43,880 nt of DNA from a virus (taxonomy: Duplodnaviria > Heunggongvirae > Uroviricota > Caudoviricetes): IMG/VR virus record IMGVR_UViG_3300045988_187204. One strand, 5' to 3'. Numbering within the stretch: position 1 is the stretch's first letter; every line of letters starts with the position of its first letter. This document shows positions 3,972 through 33,573 of this stretch, piece by piece. The position numbers were made by a program, and so were the translations under genes. The notes below the pieces were generated by a model that ran no database searches, was not told the DNA's origin, and saw nothing but the letters and a program-made list of their open reading frames with translations.

Positions 3972-6900
3972 TTATTTGTTTGACTTCATTTTTTGATATT
4001 GGCTCCATTGGCGGTCGAAGCCATCGGGGCCGGTGATGACCACGTATGACTTGATGCCAGCATCGAGCTGTTGGTTGAGTCGGTCGATGGTGTTATGCAC
4101 GCTATCGAGGGATGCGCCCATCTGTTCGGTGTCGCCACCTGTGACGTTGACCACTGGGGCGACCACGGCTGCGCTGCCTGTGCCCATGGCACGGCTCACG
4201 TCTTGTGCGGTGAGCGAGGCGACAGTGTTGTTGCGCTGCGCCATATCGATGAGCTGCAGGGCAGGGAGGAGCTGAGGATTGTTGACGGCGTTGTGGTTGG
4301 CGACGAACTCGCCAGCGTGAACCACGCCAGCCTCTTTCTTGTAATTGCCAGGACCAGTGAAACCACCCTCGTAATAGCCAGCCGCCTCTGCCTGGTGCTG
4401 CTTTTTGATTGTTGCTATCTGGAGCATGCCCGCTGCGGTGGCGAGACCTGCGGCGATAGGACCAAGGATGTGACCCACCACTGGGATGGCTGCGGCTGAT
4501 GAGTAGGCGTTGATGGCAGCCATGGCGGTTGAAGCTATGGCTTGTGCGATCTCTATCTTCATCGCCTTTTTGTTGGCCTTGCTCTTGGCTGCAGCCACCT
4601 CTTTGTCTCGCTTCGCCTCGAGTCGCTTTTTCTTGGCTGAGTTGTTGCCAGCGGCAGAAATCTGCTTATCGTAGTTTTTCTCGATCTTGGCGACCTCTAG
4701 GTCTGAGCAGGCCTGAGAGTAGGCGGAGGCAGCGCCCATCATCGTGTTGATGCTGCTGAAGGCAGCGCCAGCGATGGAGGCTATCTCTTGATAGGTCTCT
4801 TTGTTCATCTGCTTTTTGGCATCTAGATAAGCCTGTTCGCTGATGTTGCCATCTCTACGTAGCTTGTCTAGATTATCGTTGACCATCTTTTGCTGTTGGA
4901 TGGCTGCGATGGCACCACCTGCGATTGTGGCGAGGTTGTCGCTGCCCATGGCATTACTGTTGTCGCCGTTGCCCTTGGTCATCTTTTTGGCGGTGTCGAG
5001 GGCGGTGTTGGCATCCTCTTTGCGCTGCTCGTCGGCGGTAGGCTTGTATGAGGCGTATTTGTTGGCGATGCCCATCTTTGTGCGCTGGTATTCCTCCTCT
5101 CTGATGAGACCTGCCTTGTAGATGGCTTCGAGCCCCTGCAGCTCTAGTTGCATCTGCTCTTCGTTGCCGAGCTTGCCGTATTCTTGGCGCAGCTGAAGGA
5201 GTTGTTCGTCGTGTTGCTTCTGAAGGTCGTATTTGCGTTGCTGTTGGGTCAGCTCTCGCTCTTTCTCGATCTGGGCGTACTCGTCAGATGAGGAGAGGTA
5301 GAGGGCTTGCTTTTTGTTGAGATAGTCCTGGTATGAGAGAAAGAGAGCCTCGTTGACGGCATCCTCATTGTGATAGAGGTTGGAGTCTTTGTTGTAGTAG
5401 TCTGCATTGAGCTTCATTTCTTTTTTCTGTCGCTCGGTCTCCAGGGCTTCGAGGTCGGCGGTCTGCTTCTTCTCGTAGTCGGCGGCGATATTCTCTTTCT
5501 CGGCGCTCAATCGCTTGTACTCTTCGCTCTCTGCCTCGCCATACTTTTTGAGGATGTCGAGGCGAGCCTGAAGCCCCTGCTCTTTGATATTCTTCATCTT
5601 CTCGTTGTATTCGGCGAGTCGAATCTGCCCCGTAGCGTAGAGTGTCTTGGCATCTAGCTCTTCGGCTTGGTTGGCTTTCTTGGCATCGTCTAGCTCTTTT
5701 TTCATGTCGGCCTTGCGCTTTGCCTCTGCCTTGCGAGCCGCAGCCTCACGCTTCTTTTTCTCCTTCTCGGCAGCCTTGCGCTCTTTCTCGGTCATGGTAT
5801 GACCAGAGGAAGGGGTGACGGGTGTCTCAGTAGTTGCGCTATTGTTTAGTAAATTCTTCTTTACAGTCTTGTTGTACTGTTTCTGTAAATTAACGTTTTT
5901 CTCTAATTGCTGATTATAGAAATTCTCTTCAGCATTGACTTTTTTTTGCAGGCTTAGGTTTGCCTGTAGTCTTTGCGTATGAATTTGCTTTTGCTTCTCG
6001 TTGCTCTTCAGTGCCTCGTTTTGTTCGATGAGCTGACCTGTCCATCCATCAGCCACGGCATTGCTCTCATATTGCTTAGGATGAGCCTTGCGCTCAGCAT
6101 CGACAGCCTTCAGAGAATATCGTATGCGGCTCTCTTTTTGTTTGAGTTTCAGTTTCTTTTTATTGATTTCCACTTTGCGTTCATAGATAGCTTCTGCCAT
6201 GGCAGCATTCTCTAGCTCCTTGATGTAGTTTTGGATGGCAATCTGATTGTCGTTATACAACTTGCCCTCTTTGGAGATAGAGGCGTGATATTCTGGGACG
6301 AGCTTTTGCATATTTGCGATAGCTTGCTTGCGCTCGTCAACGGTATAGGCATTGGAGTGGATAACCTTGTTGAGCATATCGACCTTGTTGCGCTCATCGA
6401 GGGTAGCATCAGACACTTTTTTGGCGAGGCTGGCTTGAGCCTCTGCCACAGCTCTGTTGTTTTTAGCCTCTTGCGTGTTGTTGCGCATCGCCTCATTGTA
6501 AGATGTTATGGCTTTGTATGCCCCATAGGCAGCCACGCCCACAACGGTGATTACCGTGGCGAGGGCAGCCCATGGATTGGTGAGACTGGCTAGGCGTGCC
6601 GCCCTCATCACCACGATGTAGCCCTGTATGCCTTTTGTGAGATAAGCCCATGTGGCTTGCAGTGCCACTAAGGCAGCACGCAAAAGGGTAGAAGTTGCAG
6701 CACAAGCTTTATCGACAGCTGAAGCGTATTGCACAGCGGCAGATTTAATCTTAATAGCGATTGTCTCCTTGTACCAGAGAGTAGTACAAACAGCGATGGC
6801 TGTTGACAGCACGGCTATTTGTTTGGCATAGGTGACGGTGAAGGTGATGAGTGTGGACATGACCTTTATAGTCAGGCTGAACGACGTGATGCCATATTTC

Positions 6901-8318: not shown

Positions 8319-8340
8319 AATTGAATATTTTATTTTATGG

Positions 8341-8348
8341 CAAAGGTA
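8341..8348 (-). promoter_or_regulatory. Putative -7 promoter element (TACCTTTG on - strand) upstream of the tape-measure gene
   Basis: + strand CAAAGGTA = reverse complement of TAnnTTTG; about 25 nt upstream of the start at 8318. Confidence 0.3.
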
Positions 8349-8360
8349 ATAAGGAGGAAA

Positions 8361-8403
8361 ATATAATAAAAATACGAGACCGTATGTATTGCGGTCTCGT
8401 ATT
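8361..8403 (-). terminator. Intrinsic terminator (- strand)
   Basis: Perfect 12-bp stem AATACGAGACCG (8371-8382) / CGGTCTCGTATT (8392-8403), 9-nt loop, U-rich tract on the - strand (+ strand ATATAATAAA at 8361-8370). Confidence 0.5.
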
Positions 8404-10814: not shown

Positions 10815-10841
10815 GGTGAATCTTGTTTTTGTTTTACAGTG

Positions 10842-10849
10842 CAAAGATA
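10842..10849 (-). promoter_or_regulatory. Putative -7 promoter element (TATCTTTG on - strand) for the lysis cassette
   Basis: + strand GTGCAAAGATA; same extended motif recurs upstream of many - strand genes (20700, 26063, 28748, 37676, 38817). Confidence 0.35.
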
Positions 10850-10861
10850 AGAAGGGTAGGG

Positions 10862-10901
10862 TGATAATAAAAATACGAGACCGCCCTAACGATCTCGTAT
10901 T
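10862..10901 (-). terminator. Intrinsic terminator (- strand) after the gene ending at 10915
   Basis: Stem AATACGAGACCG / CGATCTCGTATT (11 of 12 bp, same stem sequence as the 8371 hairpin), then U-rich tract on the - strand. Confidence 0.45.
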
Positions 10902-10914
10902 ATATGTTTAACTG

Positions 10915-11322
10915 TTAGACCTCTCTTGAGAGAATCTCCTTGGCTATCTCTTTGGCCTCTTTGCGCCACGACTGATAAGCCTCGAACTCTGCCTCGTGAG
11001 TCTCGTCGCCATCGCCACGGTTGGCTAGGATGGCCTCTACCTGGTTTTGGCTGTATCGGGTGCGAACCAAACCAGCGGTGAAATCGTCGTAGGTGGCTGC
11101 GGTCGCCTGAATCTTGGTCGAGCCATCAGGCTCTGTGCCCTCATAGCTGTAAGCAGTGACACCCTCGGAGTTTTCATCTTCTGACTGCTCTGAGGTATCG
11201 GAAGAGCCTGTAGCGGCCTCAGGGTGATAGTTTTCAACTTTCTGCTCACCAGTGTAGAGCAGATAATGGTTATCGTCATATTTGACGAAGCTCTTGCGAG
11301 CTAGATAATACTTCTTGTTCAT
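10915..11322 (-). CDS. Hypothetical acidic protein downstream of the DGR reverse transcriptase
   Basis: 135-aa ORF, D/E/S/T-rich (…SSDTSEQSEDENSEGVTAYSYEGTEPDGS…); 6-nt spacing from the RT stop suggests co-transcription. Confidence 0.45.
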   Translation of the reverse strand: MNKKYYLARKSFVKYDDNHYLLYTGEQKVENYHPEAATGSSDTSEQSEDENSEGVTAYSYEGTEPDGSTKIQATAATYDDFTAGLVRTRYSQNQVEAILANRGDGDETHEAEFEAYQSWRKEAKEIAKEILSREV

Positions 11323-11328
11323 AATTGA

Positions 11329-12972
11329 TCACGTGAATTTATAGAACTTCTTTTTGAATTTATTGTGAAGCTCTGCGACCACGGTGGAGAAGGGTAGCTC
11401 ATCACGACAGAAGTCGTTGAGGGCTTGGTCTATCAAGATCTTGGAGCCTGTATAGAGGTAGTGCTCCAGAGGTTGCCATACCTCGGTGCCGTCTGGCTCC
11501 AGGTGGTCGATGATGCGATAGCGTAGGGAGAGGCGCTTCTTGGGCACCTCTTTGGTGACCATGTGGGTGGAGCCGTCCGGGGCGGTCTCCTCTTGCTGGA
11601 TGGTCTCCTTCTCTATCACCGAGTCATCGACCTTGTAGTCTATCACTTGAACGAGGAACTTGTTCTCGTCCTGACCCTCACGGCAGATGATGTCCTCGAT
11701 GGACTGCTGCTGTGATTTCTCCATACCGTCAAAAGGCACGCGCGCACGGCGAGCCTTGACGAGTTTACCGAATCTTTCCATACCGATTTTCTTATATAAG
11801 TTTTTAGAGTTTGCGTGGATGCCCAGACCTAGGCGAGAGGCTGCCTTGAGCTGTATCTGGCGGTCTGTGAAGCCCGCCTTGCGTAAGTTGGCGATCTGTC
11901 TGCAGAGGTCGTGCTTGAACCGCTTGCGCAACAGGGCGTGGTCGGCGTAGATGATCTGACCGCAGAAGTCGATGCCATCGCAGGTGCGGTGGATACCCCA
12001 AGACTTATTGATGGATAGGTGCCAGTCACGGGCGAGGTGCATCACGGCAAGCTCTGCCATCAGCCTGAGGAACACCTTATCCTCGTGGAGGATGTAGATG
12101 TTGTCCATGAAGCGGTAATAATGGCGAAGACCTTGGCGGCAGAAGCGCTCGAACCTATCGTTGAGCGACTTCACTCCCCCGCATAGCAGTTGAGCTTGCT
12201 GCTGAGTGCGACAGGTAACGAGCATGTCGATCACGTAGCGAGCCTGCCAGTAACGGAACTTGTCGGTGTCTTGGAGAATGTCGAAGCATCGGAGTGCCAG
12301 GTAATCGAAGCGGGCGAGGAAGAGCTGACCCAAGAGTTGGGCGAGCTTGACGCCGAGCACGATGCCTGGATTGAAGCTATCGACCACCTCGTCGATGAAG
12401 GCGAGGAGCTTGCGGTCTTTGATCTTGCGGCGATATTCACTTTTGAGAAGAGCGTGGTCTATGCTCTGAAAATAATGGTGAATATCCATGGGCAAGCAGT
12501 AGAAGGTATCTTGCTGTGGCGAGTTGAAGATGTCTCGCTTGACAAGATTATAGAAATAATGGGTGCCCTTGCCCTTGGAACCAGCCGGACTGTGGCTGTA
12601 GAGTGTCTTGCGAAGGTTATCCTCTACAGGTTGCAGGGCAGCGTGCTGGATGACGTGGTCGATAACGGGCAGCTTGTTGACTTGGCGATGTTTTGGATAG
12701 TCGATATCTTTGGCGACATAGGCTGAGGTATGCCAAGTTTGTTGGGTGTAAGCATCGAGCATGCGTCCGATGTTATGGTCTAGGTTTGCCTCGAATTTTT
12801 GGACCGCACGGCGAGACATCTTTTGTCGGGCGTAGTCATAGAATGCCCGACGAAAGTTGTCTAGTGTCTCGACCTGTGGCGATATGTTGCCAAACCTTTT
12901 CATAAGCGGTGTAATGTCTGTGTTGAACGGTGTATAAACTGTGTATAGTCTGAATCGTCTGCTTTTGTACAC
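11329..12972 (-). CDS. Reverse transcriptase of a diversity-generating retroelement
   Basis: RT-like motifs in order: YFQSIDH (motif 2-like), GIVLGVKLAQLLGQLF (motif 4 with the DGR-typical [I/L]Gxxx[S/A]Q in place of QGxxxSP), RFMDNIYIL (motif C position), GIDFCGQII (motif 7-like); TR lies 140 bp upstream. Track start at 12972 is GTG; first in-frame ATG is at 12903. Confidence 0.85.
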   Translation of the reverse strand: MYKSRRFRLYTVYTPFNTDITPLMKRFGNISPQVETLDNFRRAFYDYARQKMSRRAVQKFEANLDHNIGRMLDAYTQQTWHTSAYVAKDIDYPKHRQVNKLPVIDHVIQHAALQPVEDNLRKTLYSHSPAGSKGKGTHYFYNLVKRDIFNSPQQDTFYCLPMDIHHYFQSIDHALLKSEYRRKIKDRKLLAFIDEVVDSFNPGIVLGVKLAQLLGQLFLARFDYLALRCFDILQDTDKFRYWQARYVIDMLVTCRTQQQAQLLCGGVKSLNDRFERFCRQGLRHYYRFMDNIYILHEDKVFLRLMAELAVMHLARDWHLSINKSWGIHRTCDGIDFCGQIIYADHALLRKRFKHDLCRQIANLRKAGFTDRQIQLKAASRLGLGIHANSKNLYKKIGMERFGKLVKARRARVPFDGMEKSQQQSIEDIICREGQDENKFLVQVIDYKVDDSVIEKETIQQEETAPDGSTHMVTKEVPKKRLSLRYRIIDHLEPDGTEVWQPLEHYLYTGSKILIDQALNDFCRDELPFSTVVAELHNKFKKKFYKFT

Positions 12973-13111
12973 TTGATAACCTTCGACCGGATGACCGTGT
13001 TGTCATCATCTACCAGCTGTCTTATTAATGTGTATGTATCGCCATGGGGCGAGGATTGACCCTGTAATCTCGAAGTGGGAGCAAACGACCCACGAAGAGA
13101 TATGTCTGTAA

Positions 13112-13233
13112 GTTGAGGGCGGCGCCGTAGTTCACATTGGCATTCGAGACAGCATTGTTCACGTTGAGCGTCGAAAGACCGCATTGACCACCATTGTTAG
13201 CGTTAGCACCACGAAGGCAGACACGAAAACCGG
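13112..13233 (-). repeat. DGR template repeat (TR)
   Basis: About 122 bp matching 13523-13644; across 13115-13233 all 12 differences are at TR adenines (sense strand), 0 of 97 non-adenine positions differ. Confidence 0.9.
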
Positions 13234-13267
13234 CACCTAGGGTCACACCCTGGTATCATAACCGCCG

Positions 13268-13275
13268 CAAAGGTA
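13268..13275 (-). promoter_or_regulatory. Putative -7 promoter element (TACCTTTG on - strand) upstream of TR-RT
   Basis: + strand CAAAGGTA at 13268-13275, about 35 nt upstream (- strand sense) of the TR. Confidence 0.35.
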
Positions 13276-13471
13276 ATAAAAATAATCGGTATGGAAGCAT
13301 GTCAAAGAGCTTTTTTGATGTTTTTATTGATATTTTTTTTGTCGCCGACCGCCACAGGCGGTAACTTAAGGCGAGCTACGCTCGCTGGGTGCTTCGGCTT
13401 CGCCGAGGGTGCTCAGGTCTCTTTTGCACACCCAGTAAACCGATGCACACCCAGCAAACTGATGTAGTCTT

Positions 13472-14944
13472 TTAGGCCGCCTCGTAATACACGGGTTCAA
13501 CGGACCACTCGGATGCTGCTTCGCAGAGGGCGGCGCCGAAGTCCACATTGGCATACGAGACAGCAAAGCTCACGTAGAGCGTCGAAAGACCGCACCGACC
13601 ACCACTGCAAGCGTTAGCACCACGAAGGCAGACACGAAAACCGGATGTAGCGCCGCTAGTATTCCAGAAATAGCTAGTCCAATAGGTTGACTCGGATGCG
13701 CCCGTGGCGGTCGGGAAGTTCTCCAGATGCTCCATCGAGAGCGTCTTGATAAAGCCTTCGCCCTTGGTCGGCGAGGTGCTGTAAGCCACCATGCCATCGG
13801 CGGAACCTATCGTCCACGTGCCGTAGATGGACGGTGCCACGAGATGGGTCACGGAAGTGTCCTCGTTGCAACGCACCTGCTCGTCATCCATGTGTCGCCA
13901 CAATAAGCCGAAGCCATTTTTGTAGCCGAAGAAGGATGGTATCTTGGCGGTATAGACCACGGTGCCATCGTCTTTTTTGACCTCGTAGCTCGCCTCGCCG
14001 CAAGCGTCGCCCAGCTCGATGCCGGCAGACATCGGCACGATAGGGCGATAGCCGTTGTAACCACCCCAATCAGGCATCTGTGTCACGCCAGCTCCGAGAC
14101 CACCCTGGTAGAGACCGTTGGCATCTTTTTGGCTGTTGATGGCATCCTGGTCGTAGTGGGTGCCGAAGATGACCCCGAAGAGCACGGCGATGGCAGAGGT
14201 GTGGCGCATGGTGGTGCAGAGCCAGCCTGTACCATTCTTGCGGGCTGCGGCACGCCAGTATTCGGTAGTCTGGTTGGTGGCAGCCTTGCCCAGCATGGTG
14301 CGGTTGGTGTTATCTAACGTTGAGTCGTTGTTGCCGCCTCGGTAGTCTGTGCCCTCGTTGATGTAGCTCACCAGCTTGCCTGTGCTGCGCTCTAGCGTGG
14401 CGAAGCCAGCGGCGGAGATGCTGCCCACAGGTATCTTGTAGTTGTACTCGCCAGGTATTGGCGTAGGGCTGACCATCTCGTAATGGAGTCTGCCCACGGT
14501 CTTGATGACCATGTACCACTCCTTGCCCCAGCCCCACTGGTAATGCCCCTCTGAGCCATCGAGCTTGGCTGTCTCGCCGGTGGCATACTTGTGGTGGTCT
14601 TTGGAGTCGAGCTTGCGACGGGAGTGGTCATTCTTGACCAGATAACAGCCCAGACCCAGCTCCGTTGGTAGGGTCTGCAGTAACTCTAGCGAGCCCACAT
14701 AAGTGGCGGCTTTAGGGGTTGCATTGTCGAGGTTCCACACTCGACCACACCAAGGATGCTGTCCCATTTGGACGGCGCTTTTGAGCGACATCTGCTCAGA
14801 CCTGCCGGATTTTTTGTCGAAGACCTCGACAATCTTGTCAGTGGCGCTCATGTCTGACTGTGGGAGGTCGTCAACCTGTTGACCTCCATCGAAAGCGGCT
14901 ATGATAGCCTTGAGCTTACTCTCTTCTTCTGATGTTAATGCCAT
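13472..14944 (-). CDS. DGR target (variable) protein; C-terminal variable region, likely receptor-binding virion protein
   Basis: ORF track 13472..14992; start refined to ATG at 14944 (MALTSEEESK…); C-terminus …GFRVCLRGANACSGGRCGLSTLYVSFAVSYANVDFGAA… is the VR (TR encodes …GFRVCLRGANANNGGQCGLSTLNVNNAVSNANVNYGAA…); C-lectin/FGE-like fold is inferred, not shown. Confidence 0.85.
   Translation of the reverse strand: MALTSEEESKLKAIIAAFDGGQQVDDLPQSDMSATDKIVEVFDKKSGRSEQMSLKSAVQMGQHPWCGRVWNLDNATPKAATYVGSLELLQTLPTELGLGCYLVKNDHSRRKLDSKDHHKYATGETAKLDGSEGHYQWGWGKEWYMVIKTVGRLHYEMVSPTPIPGEYNYKIPVGSISAAGFATLERSTGKLVSYINEGTDYRGGNNDSTLDNTNRTMLGKAATNQTTEYWRAAARKNGTGWLCTTMRHTSAIAVLFGVIFGTHYDQDAINSQKDANGLYQGGLGAGVTQMPDWGGYNGYRPIVPMSAGIELGDACGEASYEVKKDDGTVVYTAKIPSFFGYKNGFGLLWRHMDDEQVRCNEDTSVTHLVAPSIYGTWTIGSADGMVAYSTSPTKGEGFIKTLSMEHLENFPTATGASESTYWTSYFWNTSGATSGFRVCLRGANACSGGRCGLSTLYVSFAVSYANVDFGAALCEAASEWSVEPVYYEAA
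13523..13644 (-). repeat. DGR variable repeat (VR) inside the 3' end of the target gene
   Basis: Direct alignment with the TR (offset 411 bp); ends 17 codons before the stop at 13472. Confidence 0.9.
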
Positions 14945-20683: not shown

Positions 20684-20699
20684 ATTTTTTATTTTGATG

Positions 20700-20707
20700 C
20701 AAAGATA
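20700..20707 (-). promoter_or_regulatory. Putative -7 promoter element (TATCTTTG on - strand) upstream of the large tail-fibre gene
   Basis: + strand TGCAAAGATA about 15 nt upstream of the ATG at 20683. Confidence 0.3.
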
Positions 20708-20735
20708 GGTATGATGAGAACTATATAAAAATACG

Positions 20736-22499: not shown

Positions 22500-23301
22500 A
22501 AGCTATATTGTGGCTAGCCTTGTAGGCGGTGGAATCTCTATATTTGGCGAAGTCATCGATGTTATCGTCTATGAGGGAGAGTAGGCTGAAGAAGAGTTTG
22601 TCTCTCGCCCTGAGGTCGATGGAATCGCCGTTTTTTGTGATATGGCACCCGATGAAATCGTAGATGCGCATGATGGCGACCCGATGGGAGGTGGTCGGGA
22701 ACTGAGCCTTGCGCTCCTCTTCGAGCAACTGGTCTATCTGGGCATCGGAGAGTTCGCGGCGCAGGAAGGTCTCGGCTTGGTCTATCTCGCCCTTGTGCGC
22801 CACGAGGTCATCGAAGGTAAGCTTGCCGGGGATGCCGCAGAACTTGTTGAGGATGTATGGCGACCAAATGAAGGAGCGGATGGTGTTGAAGGCTTGCAAG
22901 CTGTCAGCCCAGCCCTCGACCTGTCGCAATCGGTTGATGACGTTGTGCTGGGCGTAGTCTCGCCTGTAGGCAAGCTCGTGCTCCATGGCATCGACACGAG
23001 CCTGTGAGGCTGGGGCGATGTTGTCGTTGGAGACCACCCCGAAGCCGTTGTCGGTCATGATGATGTCGTGGGAGTGGAGACTATCGAGGAAGGTGGCCAG
23101 TATGACATAGTCTCTGGCGTAGCGCTGCAGGGGCGAGTCTTCGGTCGAGACCGCTTGCTCGGCATCTGCGCCCACGACGGTGGCGATAAGATCGTCAAAA
23201 TGGTTCTCGAAGGATGGCTGCATCTTGGTGAAGACATCCTCGGAGGCTGCCGCCACGAATGGCAGCAGCTGCTCGAACTGGTTTATATCAATCTGTATCA
23301 T
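22456..23301 (-). CDS. Hypothetical virion protein
   Basis: 281-aa ORF. Confidence 0.4.
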   Translation of the reverse strand: MIQIDINQFEQLLPFVAAASEDVFTKMQPSFENHFDDLIATVVGADAEQAVSTEDSPLQRYARDYVILATFLDSLHSHDIIMTDNGFGVVSNDNIAPASQARVDAMEHELAYRRDYAQHNVINRLRQVEGWADSLQAFNTIRSFIWSPYILNKFCGIPGKLTFDDLVAHKGEIDQAETFLRRELSDAQIDQLLEEERKAQFPTTSHRVAIMRIYDFIGCHITKNGDSIDLRARDKLFFSLLSLIDDNIDDFAKYRDSTAYKASHNIAYENNADDTTFFFAG

Positions 23302-24694
23302 CTTGTTGCTTTGATTTTAGGTTGTTGGAAACTTGCTTGGCATCCTTGTTCTCGTCGAGGGTGGTGAGCATGATGAGCGGCACGTCTGGATAGACCTTCT
23401 GCTCCCAGTGGTTGAAGTAGATGACCACCCAGTGAACGGTCTCCATGAGGTCGTGGAACGCCTTCTCTATCGACTGCTTGAGGGTGAAGAGCTCTCGCTT
23501 GTCTGAGCCAGAGTTGTTGGTTTGGCTCTTGCCCGGTGTGGCGCCCACGAGATTAGGGTGGATGTTGTCGGCATAACACTGCATGTTGTTGCTCTCGGCG
23601 ATGTCGTCGCTGTAGTCACCGCCATCCTTTGAGGTGTCGATGCGCGTGATGCGCACCATCTTTACCTCTTTGCCATCAGGTGTGGTGTAATAGCCCGCTA
23701 TCCAGAGCTTGCCGCTATTCTCGATGCCTGAGATGAAGGAGCGGATTTTTTCTTTCTCCTTCAGCTTGCGCTCCTTTTGCTTTGCCTTGTCGGTGATGTG
23801 CTCCTCTTGGAAGATGCCACGCCAATAGTCGTTGTGTATCTCTACGAGGTAAGGGATGGCAGCGTGGTTTTTGAGCTTTGCCATCTTGCCGATGGCGATG
23901 AGCCGGGAGATGTCGTACCACTTGTCTCGGAAGATGGCGCTGTAGTAGGGCACGGGGTAGTATTGACTGCCAGGAGTAGGGAAGCGAGTCACGATGGCGA
24001 AGACTCTGTCTTTGCACTTTGCTCCACCCGTCTGTCTGGTCAGGGTCTGTCCGCTTTGACCGTCGAGCCCCATGCGCTGCTGTAGGTCGCCCAGTGGGTC
24101 TAGCTCGTCGAGGAGTGGCAGCACCTCGATGTTGTCGGGATTGACGGCATTGCGCCAGTTGGCATAGAGCACGTATTCGGAGCGACCGTTTTTGCTCTGG
24201 GTGAACCGACAGTAGCACGCCTCTTTGTGCCGTATGCCCACGATGCGATCGCCCTTTTTGTTGAGGATGATGGCTGAGACACAAAAGAAGAAGTACTTCA
24301 TGTCTGTGATTTGCTCGAGGAAGAAGCGCGAGAGGTTGTTGTGCATCTTGAAGAGGTTGACCTCTTTGTCTTGTGTCGGAAGCTTTGTCTTGATGTCGTT
24401 GTACTGGAAGCCCATGCCGTAGCAGGTGAGCACGTTGAAGAGCTTGTTTTGCGCCATCACGCTGCTCTCGCCGATGTTTTTGATGAGCTGGTAGGGCAGC
24501 TTGTTGTCTGCCCCGAAGGGGATGTAGGTGTATCTTTGCTTGTCCACCTCTACGGAGACGGTGGGTGTGGTACCATCATCATCGAAGATGGATGAGGACT
24601 CGACGAAGCCGCTGGTGGGCGACGAGGTCTGGTAATCGAGCACCTCGCCCATGGTGGCGTATGTGATGTCTATGTTATTGCTTTTGTCTGCCAT
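23288..24694 (-). CDS. Large virion morphogenesis protein (portal or tail-sheath-size candidate), function unassigned
   Basis: ORF track 23288..24865; start refined to ATG at 24694 (MADKSNNIDITY…), 468 aa. Confidence 0.45.
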   Translation of the reverse strand: MADKSNNIDITYATMGEVLDYQTSSPTSGFVESSSIFDDDGTTPTVSVEVDKQRYTYIPFGADNKLPYQLIKNIGESSVMAQNKLFNVLTCYGMGFQYNDIKTKLPTQDKEVNLFKMHNNLSRFFLEQITDMKYFFFCVSAIILNKKGDRIVGIRHKEACYCRFTQSKNGRSEYVLYANWRNAVNPDNIEVLPLLDELDPLGDLQQRMGLDGQSGQTLTRQTGGAKCKDRVFAIVTRFPTPGSQYYPVPYYSAIFRDKWYDISRLIAIGKMAKLKNHAAIPYLVEIHNDYWRGIFQEEHITDKAKQKERKLKEKEKIRSFISGIENSGKLWIAGYYTTPDGKEVKMVRITRIDTSKDGGDYSDDIAESNNMQCYADNIHPNLVGATPGKSQTNNSGSDKRELFTLKQSIEKAFHDLMETVHWVVIYFNHWEQKVYPDVPLIMLTTLDENKDAKQVSNNLKSKQQDDTD

Positions 24695-24699
24695 AATCT

Positions 24700-24960
24700 T
24701 TATAAGTATATTGAATGGTCGTTGTATCTGAAGATGAAAATGTCTCTCACCTTGCGTATCTGGTGGTTGACTGGGTTGTAGAGGGTGTGGGTGCCGTTTT
24801 GCCAGGATGAGGACTTGACGAGCCATCCCCTGTACTGGATGATGGAACCATCGCCGCCCTTCCAACAGTCGATGTCAACGGGCGAGCGGTCGATGCGCGA
24901 GATGTCGAGGGCACGGCGCAGCTCGTTGATGTGTATTGCCTTGGGTGTCTTGTCTGCCAT
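24700..24960 (-). CDS. Hypothetical small virion protein
   Basis: 86-aa ORF with ATG at 24960, ending 6 nt before the next gene start. Confidence 0.4.
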   Translation of the reverse strand: MADKTPKAIHINELRRALDISRIDRSPVDIDCWKGGDGSIIQYRGWLVKSSSWQNGTHTLYNPVNHQIRKVRDIFIFRYNDHSIYL

Positions 24961-26039: not shown

Positions 26040-26080
26040 ATCAATGTCTCATTAAAACGATGCAAAGATAGGAAGGAAGG

Positions 26081-26123
26081 GGAGAAAATAAAAATACCTG
26101 ATTGTCATCACGACAACCAGGTA
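26081..26123 (-). terminator. Intrinsic terminator (- strand) after the small-gene cassette
   Basis: Stem TACCTGATTGTC / GACAACCAGGTA (11 of 12 bp), loop ATCAC, U-rich flank on the - strand (+ strand GGAGAAAATAAAAA). Confidence 0.4.
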
Positions 26124-29644: not shown

Positions 29645-30169
29645 TTAGTTATACATTCTCTTTGTTCTCGCTAGGAACATCGCTCCCATCACTTGTGCGC
29701 CACATTCGGCTAGCTCGTTGGCGAACTCTCGGGCGGTCGCTCCGCTCGTCACCACGTCGTCGAAGATGATGACTTTCTTTCCGCTGAAGTACTCTCTATC
29801 GAGTGCCACTCTGTAGTCGAAGCTCTCACACACTCTGTCTGTGCTGAAGTGCTTGGCTGTGCGCTCTCCATAGATGGAAATGTGCTCGTTTCCGTTCTGT
29901 ACCTTTGCGCCTTGGCTCACCTTTTGGGCGAAGCGAGAAAAGCGCTTGGTGTACTTCTTTGAGTTGGCTGCTGGAGCGCAAACCATCACGAAGTCGCTGG
30001 CTTTGTCGCCATAGGTGTTGACGAAAGAGCTGACCACCATATCGGCAGCTGCGTCTGTCGCCCACTGCTTTCCATCCTTGAAGGCAAAGATGAAGTTTCT
30101 CACTTGCTCTGCTTGTGCTGAGCGGTCGAAACGCTTGGAGCTGTACTCGTAATAATTGAAAGTTTTCAT
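29645..30169 (-). CDS. Phosphoribosyltransferase-domain protein (ComF-like type I PRTase fold)
   Basis: 174-aa ORF, ATG at 30169; …KKVIIFDDVVTSGATAREFANEL… is a typical PRPP-binding loop. Confidence 0.65.
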   Translation of the reverse strand: MKTFNYYEYSSKRFDRSAQAEQVRNFIFAFKDGKQWATDAAADMVVSSFVNTYGDKASDFVMVCAPAANSKKYTKRFSRFAQKVSQGAKVQNGNEHISIYGERTAKHFSTDRVCESFDYRVALDREYFSGKKVIIFDDVVTSGATAREFANELAECGAQVMGAMFLARTKRMYN

Positions 30170-32669: not shown

Positions 32670-33295
32670 AGTGCTTTGTCCTCCTTGACTTCTTCTGTAG
32701 GTGTATATTCCAAGAGCTGTTCGTCGTAGTCCTCGGCCTCGATCTTGACGAGATCCATGGAGTTGTCGGTGTATTTCTTGACGAGCTTCTTGATGGTCTG
32801 CATCACGTTAGGGATGCGCTTGAGACCCAAGTGTCGTGGGTCGGTGGTAGGGATGAAGACCTGAGGCTGAATCTGGTCGTAGCCGTTGTCGGTAGGATCC
32901 TCTTTGTCGAGCAGGTGATATTTGCCGTATGCAGCTGCGGCGGCAGCCATGGCTCGGGCATCGCCCATGGAGTCGGCCTTGTCGTAGGTGCGCTGTATCA
33001 TCTGGTCGAAGCGATAGCGGGCGAAGTCTTTTGACACTTTTTGCAGGTTGCCCAATATGAGCTTGATGAGGTGCAGGTCGTTGTAAGCCATCATGCGCTG
33101 CACCTTGTAGTCGTGCATATCTTTATAGACCAGCTCTTGGTCGCTCTTGCGAGGGTTGATGAGCCACCAGGCATAGAGGGCACGGATGCGCAAAATGCGG
33201 TCGCGCACTGGGGCGGGCACATTTTGCGCATCCATCTCTTCGGGTGTGCGGTCCATCAGTTCGATGATGGCATCGATGTTGGCGGGTTCTCTCAT
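32666..33295 (-). CDS. Hypothetical protein upstream of terL (terminase small subunit candidate)
   Basis: 209-aa ORF translationally coupled to terL; assignment by position only. Confidence 0.3.
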   Translation of the reverse strand: MREPANIDAIIELMDRTPEEMDAQNVPAPVRDRILRIRALYAWWLINPRKSDQELVYKDMHDYKVQRMMAYNDLHLIKLILGNLQKVSKDFARYRFDQMIQRTYDKADSMGDARAMAAAAAAYGKYHLLDKEDPTDNGYDQIQPQVFIPTTDPRHLGLKRIPNVMQTIKKLVKKYTDNSMDLVKIEAEDYDEQLLEYTPTEEVKEDKAL

Positions 33296-33573
33296 ATTCT
33301 AATCTCCTCTAACATTTGGTTCAGATATTCGTGTGTGCGCTGCACCGCCTGTGGCGAGCCAGCCGCAGCCAGGTCTAGCTCGTTTTTGCGTATCTGCTGG
33401 CGCACCGTCGCCATGCCCAAGTAATAGACACGGTGAAGCTCGGAGTCGGGCTTCAGTATCTCGTCACGCAGATCGTCCTCGCTAATATCCAAAAGGACGG
33501 ACATCTCGGATATCGGAGTCAACGTCTCCGCGAAGTCTTGCACTTTTTTGAGTAATTCCTGAGAAATTTCCAT
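33292..33573 (-). CDS. Hypothetical small protein (start uncertain)
   Basis: 93-aa ORF overlapping the upstream gene; an internal ATG at about 33504 would reduce the overlap. Confidence 0.3.
   Translation of the reverse strand: MEISQELLKKVQDFAETLTPISEMSVLLDISEDDLRDEILKPDSELHRVYYLGMATVRQQIRKNELDLAAAGSPQAVQRTHEYLNQMLEEIRI

Follow-up and report, generated by a model that had tools for sequence, protein, structure and literature searches.

The diversity-generating retroelement (DGR) of BPP-1 (Mtd, Avd, TR, Sp RNA and bRT) combines a phage tail protein that has a C-type-lectin fold and a C-terminal variable repeat (VR) with, in order, a template repeat (TR), a structured spacer RNA and a reverse transcriptase (RT). 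Its mutagenesis is confined to adenines and reaches ~50% of those in the TR, which has an AAY codon design and an A-free GC-rich 3′ end. Avd occurs in ~74% of DGRs and is required in the BPP-1/Bordetella system; Avd-less DGRs are a recognized architecture (Architecture A; Wu et al. 2018, PMC5758913), described from Lineage 3/3A of Bacteroides and relatives together with the accessory CH1 and RTs with C-terminal extensions. C-lectin-fold tail/adhesin proteins are also diversified by the gut Bacteroidales phages Hankyphage (PMC6199706), Bacuni (PMC8143477), crAss-like (PMC7290462) and Quimbyvirus (PMC8008677).

We analysed a 43,880-nt stretch of phage DNA (the window) whose repeat pair, RT and tail protein share all of the above fold, gene-order, mutagenesis, codon and repeat-end features with BPP-1. 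The element is very probably a DGR of a temperate, siphovirus-like Segatella/Prevotella copri phage, with a mechanism as proposed below. DGRs of this kind are already known; what is unusual is the RT lineage, which has an FxDN motif, lacks Avd and carries an extra SSB-like domain. Judged by description, the element resembles the avd-less DGRs of Wu et al. (PMC5758913) in the absence of avd and in its Bacteroidales hosts.

TR and VR differ only at template adenines

The TR (13115..13233, − strand) and VR (13526..13644, − strand) match base for base at an offset of 411 bp, as a preliminary description of this DNA had reported, and an ungapped alignment over these 119 nt returned its counts unchanged: all 12 differences lie at a + strand T of the TR (an A on the − strand), with 12 of 22 such positions and 0 of the other 97 changed. 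The chance that 12 random differences would all land on T is 6.8 × 10−11 (hypergeometric). Read in the sense direction, the changes comprise six A>T and six A>G; 11 are at codon positions 1 or 2 and one is at position 3, and 18 of the 22 TR adenines sit in AAC/AAT (AAY) codons. The translated peptides, ANANNGGQCGLSTLNVNNAVSNANVNYGAA for the TR and ANACSGGRCGLSTLYVSFAVSYANVDFGAA for the VR, are exactly those quoted previously. The repeat had been delimited as 13112–13233/13523–13644; its core stands, but the edge does not, given that the two edge differences (13113–13114 versus 13524–13525; AAC versus TGC) are the same in six related contigs and hence lie outside the mutagenized tract. No other repeat of this kind occurs within the window.

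The probability that the pair is an ordinary duplication that diverged through point mutation, gene conversion or base editing is negligible. Nothing speaks for such an origin beyond the existence of a repeat, and it has to contend with the confinement of all 12 differences to one base (P = 7 × 10−11 when rounded), the recurrence of the A-only pattern in 86 independent TR/VR pairs, the adjoining DGR-type RT and the DGR-type fold of the target; deaminase-type editing is excluded because both A>T and A>G are among the changes. We rejected this origin on the A-only differences, the invariant TR beside variable VRs and the clade-wide adenine bias.

Variation among related phages

Comparison of six contigs (95.6–98.8% identical over 9.8–15.6 kb) revealed an invariant TR (122/122 positions identical, 0 differences) and 13–17 differences each in the VR. 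VR divergence reached 10.7–13.9% between near-identical contigs, against about 2% in the rest of the target; RT divergence was 0.3–1.6%, rising to 9.7% in L083, the contig that diverges most. Relatives that are ~98.7% identical differ within the VR only at A-templated sites. Across the clade, 86 unique TR/VR pairs beside F-x-D-N RTs (see below) differed at 1,066 of 2,066 adenines and 15 of 8,308 other bases in a first scan; under unbiased scoring, 47.8% of A, 0.79% of C, 0.43% of G and 0.71% of T positions differed. This adenine rate agrees with published values of ~50% for bRT and Bacteroides DGRs, given as misincorporation or as mutational density (PMC7826257; 10.1101/2024.11.15.621889). At eight clade loci no TR/VR pair was found in the flank, and two others (L023 and L100) had many non-adenine mismatches.

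These sequence comparisons indicate recent mutagenic homing in this phage lineage, where the invariant TR and adenine-divergent VRs bear out the earlier statement of mutagenic homing and recent activity. In the individual genome, as opposed to its lineage, the element could be a recently silenced relic whose VR pattern records past activity only: a single assembled sequence carries no sign of ongoing activity, and related genomes often have an RT frameshifted at a poly-G tract yet retain pristine A-only TR/VR pairs. We consider silencing rather unlikely, as the element retains an intact RT, acidic ORF, TR, RT-17 RNA and promoter box, its poly-G tract (12176–12180, + strand coordinates; RT on −) is interrupted (G5-A) and in frame, non-adenine TR/VR mismatches are zero and the ~98.7% identical relatives vary at A-templated VR sites only. 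The poly-G frameshift alleles with pristine repeats suggest on/off control of DGR activity in those relatives; the RT of Quimbyvirus, which is frameshifted and apparently still active (PMC8008677), provides a precedent for such alleles.

A reverse transcriptase with an F-x-D-N motif

PHROG, PDB and homologue comparisons place a 524-aa RT at 11329..12903 (− strand). The end of the ORF is as first described (11329..12972), and the start moves from GTG 12972 to ATG 12903 on the basis of homologues. Reverse transcriptase profiles, proposed previously as a check of this ORF, gave a divided answer: there was no Pfam match, with RVT_1 (PF00078) missing the protein even at E ≤ 10, whereas PHROG 1423 (1.4 × 10−54), the Bordetella DGR RT structure 8UB7 (1.3 × 10−11; the closest solved relative) and, weakly and below cut-off, the NCBIfam group II RT (1.8 × 10−8) all matched. 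Precomputed PF00078 matches exist for only ~20 of 120 homologues, mainly distant ones, and DGR surveys pre-screened with this family (for example, PMC6199706) would miss the lineage. As in bRT, equivalents of R74 (in PKHR, 12685–12696) and I181 are kept; motif A reads MDIHHYF (12469–12489) and motif 4 reads LGVKLAQ (12337–12357; all + strand coordinates, RT on −). The DGR-type motif 4 noted earlier therefore retains L, G and Q of [I/V/L]GxxxSQ but has Ala in place of Ser; most clade members have the SQ form (LGVKLSQ).

The most unusual feature of the protein, absent from the preliminary description, is motif C, F-M-D-N (12100–12111, + strand coordinates, RT on −; residues 265–268). It aligns to YMDD of bRT (Y213–D216) in the 8UB7 comparison and has Asn where bRT has D216, the second YxDD aspartate and a listed catalytic residue. 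FMDN thus departs from RTs in general, YxDD not being a DGR-specific criterion; the text of PMC5758913 makes no mention of a catalytic-motif variant. F-x-D-N is present in 108 of 118 homologues and is conserved across a clade of Bacteroidales phage and prophage RTs; synonymous codons alternate at each of its Phe, Asp and Asn positions (Asn, AAC 70/AAT 35), indicating purifying selection. Some relatives that share this cassette instead have YADD, LADD or FADD. The Tyr>Phe and Asp>Asn substitutions usually go hand in hand (YADD to FxDN), FADD and LADD intermediates being rare, which suggests coordinated active-site remodelling, possibly adjusting how the enzyme uses metal or how faithfully it copies.

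We infer from these sequences that the F-x-D-N RT is probably competent and performs the mutagenesis in cis. A catalytically dead RT-like protein, with a canonical YxDD DGR RT from elsewhere in the host acting in trans, would fit the listing of the second Asp as catalytic in bRT, the failure of Pfam to recognize the protein and the frequent presence of canonical DGR RTs in Bacteroidales genomes (loci L058–L079). Such an arrangement is nevertheless very unlikely: the window encodes one RT only; TR, RT-17 RNA and RT stay tightly linked, with A-only divergence, at some 90 loci across many hosts; purifying selection acts on the RT, with synonymous turnover at F, D and N as well; the D138 and D215 equivalents are invariant; and the BPP-1 RT recognizes its own flanking RNA, making promiscuous service in trans improbable. 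An RT that apparently mutagenizes adenines at ~50% with Asn at a position listed as catalytic offers a natural experiment on which active-site features polymerization and selective infidelity require.

Unlike bRT (328 aa, and stated to be without extra RNA/DNA-binding subdomains), the window RT continues into a C-terminal extension (residues 380–524, ~145 aa; 11332..11766, − strand), an independent β-rich domain with a long β-hairpin that weakly resembles SSB/OB folds. Wu et al. (PMC5758913) likewise describe RT extensions of up to ~150 aa without a recognizable motif. RTs of Hankyphage, Bacuni, crAss-like phages and Quimbyvirus match only residues 1 to ~373, at 24–30% identity, and the annotated phage collection contains a single close relative, the unannotated fragment MT835875.1.

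A proposed TR–RT transcription unit

A Bacteroidetes-type −7 box, TAccTTTG (13268..13275, − strand), lies 34 nt upstream of the TR. TAnnTTTG is found ≤90 nt upstream of the TR in 56 of 58 unique loci, mostly at 25–47 nt, against a background of 0.044 per 90 nt; its match to the consensus suggests that the box acts as a promoter. A predicted promoter of its own, ~30 nt upstream, sets this TR apart from that of BPP-1, and the avd:Sp 'stop' duplex of BPP-1 therefore cannot exist here in that form. The unit that contains the TR, RT and acidic ORF is closed by an intrinsic terminator (10872..10901, − strand; 13-bp stem and T-run).

The TR–RT spacer contains a structured RNA, Rfam RF03020 'RT-17' (12955..13056, − strand), matched over its full length by the covariance model at 59.9 bits (gathering threshold, 40.4). 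It recurred at the corresponding place in 5 of 9 related loci and subsequently in 7 of 9, YADD relatives among them. Alignment of 26 clade spacers showed that 84.8% of cells pair, compared with 21–39% in slid controls; compensatory changes occur at 10 of 12 pairs, and 0 of 500 shuffles attained the score. Weinberg et al. (2017, PMC5737381) listed RT-17 as an orphan motif 'near RT genes' and connected only RT-10 with a DGR; the spacer RNA here thus differs from the RT-10 of BPP-1, and the orphan motif gains a function and context as a DGR TR–RT spacer. By analogy with the BPP-1 spacer RNA, RT-17 may act in scaffolding/priming. Four iterated heptamers, TACACAG, TACACCG, AACACAG and TACACCG (12907..12945, − strand), immediately precede the RT start; 63 unique spacers contain a mean of 3.0 copies per 90 nt, compared with 0.25 in shuffles, mostly spaced by 11–12 nt.

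An acidic ORF and no detectable Avd

Searches of the 25 window ORFs yielded no four-helix-bundle or Avd-type Pfam match—although a very divergent Avd could escape Pfam owing to its poor conservation—and no ORF lies between target and TR. The element is thus 'complete', as it had been called, only as an Avd-less architecture, which distinguishes it from BPP-1 and from Hankyphage (PMC6199706) and Bacuni phages (PMC8143477), which have an Avd-like ORF. It instead has, 6 nt downstream of the RT, an acidic ORF (10915..11322, − strand; 135 aa, pI 4.6) that is absent from BPP-1 and encodes a candidate accessory protein without Pfam, PHROG or PDB matches. This ORF is present in 71 of 71 clade loci (gap to RT, 0–44 nt; 123–141 aa; pI 4.2–5.9), with other neighbours varying, and it also follows the RT in YADD/FADD relatives at 26–37% RT identity. 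PMC5758913 likewise describes a small, acidic accessory ORF restricted to avd-less DGRs; compared by description, however, that ORF (CH1) is longer (160–169 aa). CH1-like ORFs (156–164 aa; putative CH1) upstream of short YADD RTs at loci L058–L077 had no detectable similarity to the 135-aa ORF (E > 0.02).

The SSB-like domain of the RT and/or the acidic ORF might stand in for the missing Avd. It is possible, though less likely than not, that the acidic protein instead serves the variable tail protein, as a structural partner or as a chaperone of its assembly, and that the RT works alone with its RNA. Genes that follow tail-fibre genes often encode assembly factors, all loci examined contain the ORF and the target family together and the acidity of the encoded protein makes it unlikely to bind RNA as Avd does. 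Because RT, target and acidic ORF always co-occur, linkage to the RT is inseparable from linkage to the target; nevertheless, the ORF lies 0–44 nt after the RT, within the unit that runs from the TR promoter box to the terminator rather than adjoining the target, and stays with the RT across the YADD, FADD and FxDN forms. The SSB-like domain, the acidic ORF and a defined RNA are candidates for components of the Avd-independent route noted by Wu et al.

Target protein and VR boundary

The target gene, with coordinates here set at 13472..14944 (− strand; 490 aa), a small correction, encodes a tail-associated variable protein. The C-lectin/FGE-type fold proposed earlier for its C terminus was confirmed; this is the fold of DGR variable proteins, and the VR encodes residues 434–473 within it, ending 51 nt before the stop codon. 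Thermus aquaticus TaqVP (PDB 5VF4) shares only 17% identity, leaves the N-terminal ~200 residues unmatched and, unlike the target, is a bacterial protein rather than a phage tail protein. The target may be a receptor-binding protein.

The repeat ends in the A-free GC-rich block GGCGCCGCCCTC, which precedes a hairpin (CTGC-GAA-GCAG; 13516..13526, − strand) that straddles the 3′ boundary of the VR and is absent from the TR, a candidate IMH/hairpin-type target-recognition element. Perfect stems of at least 4 bp occur at this boundary in 37 of 47 unique clade loci, compared with 11 of 47 TR flanks, and two loci with another C-terminal peptide have 8-bp versions. The hairpin might direct homing; its stem is short (4–5 bp) and overlaps conserved coding sequence, and is thus weak evidence for a recognition element.

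Proposed mechanism and distribution

In the mechanism that we propose, a transcript would start at the Bacteroidetes-type promoter, span the TR, the RT-17 spacer RNA, the RT gene and the small acidic ORF, and end at the terminator. [quoted passage not shown] The roles of the Asn, the extra RT domain and the acidic ORF would be those of a broader scheme, which we advance tentatively and with rather less than even confidence: the F-x-D-N clade would perform a mechanistically distinct, Avd-independent mutagenic retrohoming with two of three catalytic carboxylates (D140 and D267, then Asn268), in which the SSB/OB-like domain and RT-17 position template and nascent cDNA, the acidic partner replaces or regulates the role of Avd and, in part of the clade, the slippery poly-G tract in the RT gene toggles diversification.

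The lineage is abundant both in gut metagenomes and among the prophages of Segatella copri, one of the major species of the human gut; we counted 439 stretches from IMG/VR and 189 from genomes that encode relatives, and thousands of different sequences belong to the target clusters.

Adenine-specific divergence of the repeats

Pairwise alignment on the + strand places the template repeat (TR; 13115–13233) against the variable repeat (VR; 13526–13644) of the diversity-generating retroelement (DGR) at an offset of 411 nt without gaps. All 12 differences across the 119 nt fall at + strand T of the TR, that is, at adenines in the sense of the − strand genes (12 of the 22 T positions and 0 of the 97 other bases; P = 6.8e-11 for chance placement), in agreement with the preliminary description, whose TR and VR peptides were also exact. 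In the gene sense, the changes from TR to VR are six A>T and six A>G, and AAC/AAT codons hold 18 of the 22 TR adenines. The mutagenised tract is 13115–13233; the two further differences noted at the repeat edge, where the TR has AAC and the VR has TGC, lie outside it, because they are unchanged in six related contigs. A repeat search of the window found no second repeat pair of the TR/VR kind.

Five contigs that are 95.6–98.8% identical to the window over 9.8–15.6 kb carry exactly the same TR (122 nt), and their VRs differ from that of the window at 13–17 positions (10.7–13.9%), nearly all of them adenine-templated; the remainder of the target gene is ~2% different and the reverse transcriptase (RT) 0.3–1.6% (9.7% in L083, the most divergent contig). 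The cassette was found again in ~90 loci. Among 86 unique TR/VR pairs adjoining RTs of the same clade (Bacteroidales phage and prophage enzymes with motif C F-x-D-N), 1,066 of 2,066 TR adenines were changed, as against 15 of 8,308 other bases. The TR/VR scan led to the same conclusion under a heavier penalty on non-A mismatches and under equal penalties; under base-blind scoring of the clade pairs, 47.8% of A, 0.79% of C, 0.43% of G and 0.71% of T were changed. This fraction of about half of the adenines matches that reported for bRT, the RT of the Bordetella phage BPP-1 DGR, in vitro (PMC7826257) and for Bacteroides DGRs in vivo (10.1101/2024.11.15.621889). Adenine-specific, directional flow of information from TR to VR operates in this phage lineage, and the original reading of the region as a DGR was essentially right, given the population variation of the VR, the relatives of the RT and the clade-wide adenine-only pairs. 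A DGR as such is an already known kind of element.

Two related loci (L023 and L100) have TR/VR pairs with about as many non-adenine as adenine mismatches (16–17 and 10–13), and in eight further clade loci the VR is absent from the fetched flank; all ten are presumably decaying or rearranged elements.

Cassette and host phage

The cassette genes all lie on the − strand. The target (13472..14944; 490 aa), a tail-associated protein with the VR at its C terminus, is separated from the TR by an intergenic region of 238 nt, and a spacer of 208 nt separates the TR from the RT gene (11329..12903; 524 aa). The RT had been given a start at an upstream GTG; comparison with homologues points instead to the ATG at 12903. 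Six nucleotides past the RT follows an ORF for an acidic protein (10915..11322; 135 aa, pI 4.6) and after it an intrinsic terminator (10901–10872). Pfam matched no family in the target, the TR ORF or the neighbouring genes, NCBIfam gave no match for the target, and profile searches with the target against PDB sequences and Pfam returned chance-level matches only. We infer that the target is a receptor-binding tail protein.

Taken as a whole, the window belongs to a temperate tailed phage and has genes for an integrase (819–1982, +), a tape-measure protein, a head protease and an amidase. IMG/VR holds ~44-kb contigs that are 98.7% identical to the window across the region compared, and prophages in Segatella copri isolate genomes encode RTs 87–88% identical to that of the window; a near-identity DNA search against annotated phages matched only two unannotated fragments. 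In related prophages, a tmRNA gene (L028:11276–11672) and two tRNA genes (L003:10526–10692) lie ~2–3 kb downstream of the cassette and are plausible integration sites of these temperate phages. The window also encodes a PF00156 phosphoribosyltransferase-domain protein (29645–30169, −; Pfam E = 4.5e-7, above the gathering score) and has a 51-nt AT-rich inverted repeat (8755–8805/43375–43425; 82% complementary, 34.6 kb apart). The latter pair, which was scored as a 46-nt direct repeat too, is situated near both ends of the − strand gene block and may represent divergent regulatory sequence or be tied to attachment or genome ends.

A reverse transcriptase with an F-x-D-N motif

The expectation that the RT ORF would match RT profiles was borne out by PHROG 1423 'reverse transcriptase' (1.4e-54) and by bRT (PDB 8UB7, a 328-aa chain), its best solved relative, and failed for Pfam, in which no family matched even at E ≤ 10; NCBIfam gave only sub-threshold matches to group II RT and Drt2. 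Alignments to the DGR RTs of annotated phages (crAss-like, Bordetella-like and others) cover no more than residues 1 to ~373, at 24–30% identity. The YMDD motif occupies residues 213–216 in 8UB7 numbering, in line with the catalytic D215/D216 given for bRT, and it aligns with F-M-D-N in the window RT (residues 265–268; + strand 12100–12111), which therefore has Asn in place of the D216 equivalent. R74 and I181 of bRT, which promote adenine mutagenesis (PMC7826257), correspond to the Arg of PKHR and the Leu of LGVKLAQ.

F-[AMV]-D-N was present in 108 of 118 homologues, and the equivalents of D140 and D267 are invariant. Among the RTs of the fetched loci, all those at ≥31% full-length identity carry F-x-D-N, except that of L028, which has YADD, the motif C of short canonical Bacteroidales DGR RTs. 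Across unique genes, the codons for Phe, Asp and Asn each occur in both synonymous forms (Asn: AAC 70, AAT 35), and the F-x-D-N sequences form one clade with only two DD members in a rough neighbour-joining tree. On this comparative record, F-x-D-N is not a defect peculiar to this one genome. Relatives with YADD, LADD and FADD motifs carry the same cassette and likewise show adenine-only divergence. Comparison gives good support to the F-x-D-N RT encoded in cis as the enzyme behind the mutagenesis; the motif-C Asn would change metal use or catalytic efficiency with activity kept. The RNA polymerases of non-segmented negative-strand viruses have GDN where others use GDD.

An exhaustive search of 1.84 billion representatives gave 3,329 matches at E ≤ 1e-3, of which only 54 reach E ≤ 1e-30, so the long-form RT lineage is narrow in sequence space, though abundant in samples. 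The searchable literature gave no description of the motif variant (FADN, YADN, FMDN, YxDN, or YxDD variants in DGRs). The clade may be among those catalogued by Roux et al. (2021) with no remark on it, because their custom HMMs were iterated and RTs of up to 650 aa were accepted. The escape of the F-x-D-N RT from Pfam is part of what sets the element apart from known DGRs, and its combination with a fused SSB-like domain, the lack of the accessory protein Avd, the acidic ORF and the RNA motif RT-17 is apparently undescribed.

Two relatives have other layouts. An intermediate (L162:7924–9679) has a 447-aa RT with F-A-D-D that is recognised by Pfam RVT_1; RT-17 lies upstream of it and a homologue of the acidic ORF (E = 2.5e-53) downstream, and the TR/VR pair is adenine-only (10/0). 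In a 35%-identical relative with a canonical LADD motif (L160:1–1707; ENA contig, 1.7× coverage), the RT core stops after the thumb, and the C-terminal domain is encoded apart from it by a 130-aa ORF that has its own ATG and is followed by an acidic ORF homologue; a natural split or a sequence error at low coverage might explain this layout. The 'YADNI' in the window ORF at 23288–24865 is a chance motif, the ORF being without RT homology.

A G tract in the RT sense strand (codons 241–243; + strand C-run 12176–12180) varies in length among close relatives. Intact RT genes have G7 (the 85–89% identity group), G8 (the 64% group) or tracts of the same total length with an interruption, and the window has G5-A. 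In 9–10 loci, including two cultured S. copri isolates, one or two Gs gained or lost produce a frameshift exactly at the tract (L019, L026, L027, L140, L144, L147–L149 and L151), and the TR/VR pairs of these loci remain clean, with mismatches at adenines and at no other base. RT fragments that end at residue 243 or begin at 247–266 form protein clusters of their own. The variation could reflect a slipped-strand on/off switch, programmed slippage or a plain mutational hotspot.

An element without detectable Avd

The window DGR has no detectable Avd: no ORF of any kind separates target and TR, and no Avd-type or four-helix-bundle match was found among 25 small or neighbouring window ORFs. A 93-aa ORF (33292–33573) with a faint match to cytochrome b562, a four-helix protein, was considered as a remote Avd and rejected because it is acidic (pI 4.6) and 20 kb from the cassette. 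Neighbouring canonical DGR loci, tried as a source for an Avd profile, were Avd-less as well. According to Wu et al. (2018; PMC5758913), 29% of DGRs are without an accessory gene, 'Lineage 3' has no avd (3A being restricted to Bacteroides and relatives), ~20% of RTs bear extensions of up to ~150 aa, and CH1, a small acidic accessory, is exclusive to avd-less elements.

The acidic ORF was present in 71 of 71 clade loci, 0–44 nt after the RT stop, among otherwise variable neighbours; its linkage to the RT is not separable from linkage to the tail protein because the target family co-occurs in all loci. It also follows the RT of YADD/FADD relatives (26–37% RT identity), including some in which no RT extension can be recognised. 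It had no match in Pfam, PHROGs or PDB (profile searches against PDB sequences and Pfam gave chance-level matches only) and is not detectably related to CH1-like ORFs of neighbouring canonical loci. The SSB-like domain (RT residues 380–524) and/or the acidic protein would make up for Avd.

Upstream of the short YADD DGR RTs in canonical Bacteroidales loci, which have no Avd (L058–L077, ~5880–6800), are two paralogous acidic ORFs (156–164 and 121–132 aa) that have a 'VEDA..TGRP' motif in common and fit CH1 of Wu et al. (2018; PMC5758913) in size and charge. RT-17 also lies ahead of the RT in two of these loci (L058 and L068).

RT-17 RNA in the spacer

The TR–RT spacer contains a full-length match to the Rfam motif RT-17 (RF03020; 12955–13056; 59.9 bits against a threshold of 40.4). 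Weinberg et al. (2017; PMC5737381) reported the orphan motifs RT-1 to RT-19 from the vicinity of RT genes, tied only RT-10 to a DGR, as the BPP-1 TR–RT spacer, and speculated that further ones might be parts of DGRs. RT-17 occupied the same position in five of nine, then seven of nine, related loci tested, among them loci with YADD or FADD RTs and two with short canonical RTs of Bacteroidales DGRs. This distribution suggests that RT-17 is the spacer RNA of a wider Avd-less lineage in Bacteroidales. With the Rfam structure imposed on 26 diverse clade spacers, 84.8% of cells were paired, compared with 21–39% in slid controls, compensatory changes occurred in 10 of 12 pairs, and 0 of 500 shuffles attained the observed score; from the raw MAFFT alignment of the spacers, RNAalifold had recovered the first hairpin only. 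Comparison thus gives good support for RT-17 belonging to the element, where it would scaffold and prime like the BPP-1 Sp RNA. In a search for duplexes between the TR 3′ end and the spacer, CCCTC:GAGGG-type pairing recurred immediately 5′ of RT-17 in roughly half of the loci, at inconsistent positions; it is a hypothetical priming duplex.

Between RT-17 and the RT start codon lie four iterated heptamers [GTA]ACAC[CTA][GA] (12907–12945, −). Across 63 unique clade spacers they average 3.0 copies per 90 nt, compared with 0.25 in shuffles, with a spacing of mostly 11–12 nt, about one helical turn.

Proposed transcription unit and VR boundary

A Bacteroidetes −7 box (TAnnTTTG) lies ≤90 nt upstream of the TR in 56 of 58 unique loci, mostly at 25–47 nt; given this box and the terminator past the acidic ORF, TR, RT-17, RT and acidic ORF would form one transcription unit. 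The VR 3′ boundary has a short hairpin (CTGC-GAA-GCAG; 13516–13526) that is present in 37 of 47 loci and missing from most TR flanks. In BPP-1, a hairpin is needed for target recognition; by analogy, the one here might perhaps mark the VR as recipient.

An intergenic module is repeated in the window at 8325–8391, 10826–10892, 20684–20735 and 26061–26113 (repeat families D2/D4). Its reverse complement holds a −7 box TAnnTTTG (+ strand ...CAAAGATA...) adjoining AATAAAAATACG, and at 10872–10901 the module shares sequence with the terminator that follows the acidic ORF. These modules are probably terminator–promoter junctions of − strand operons.
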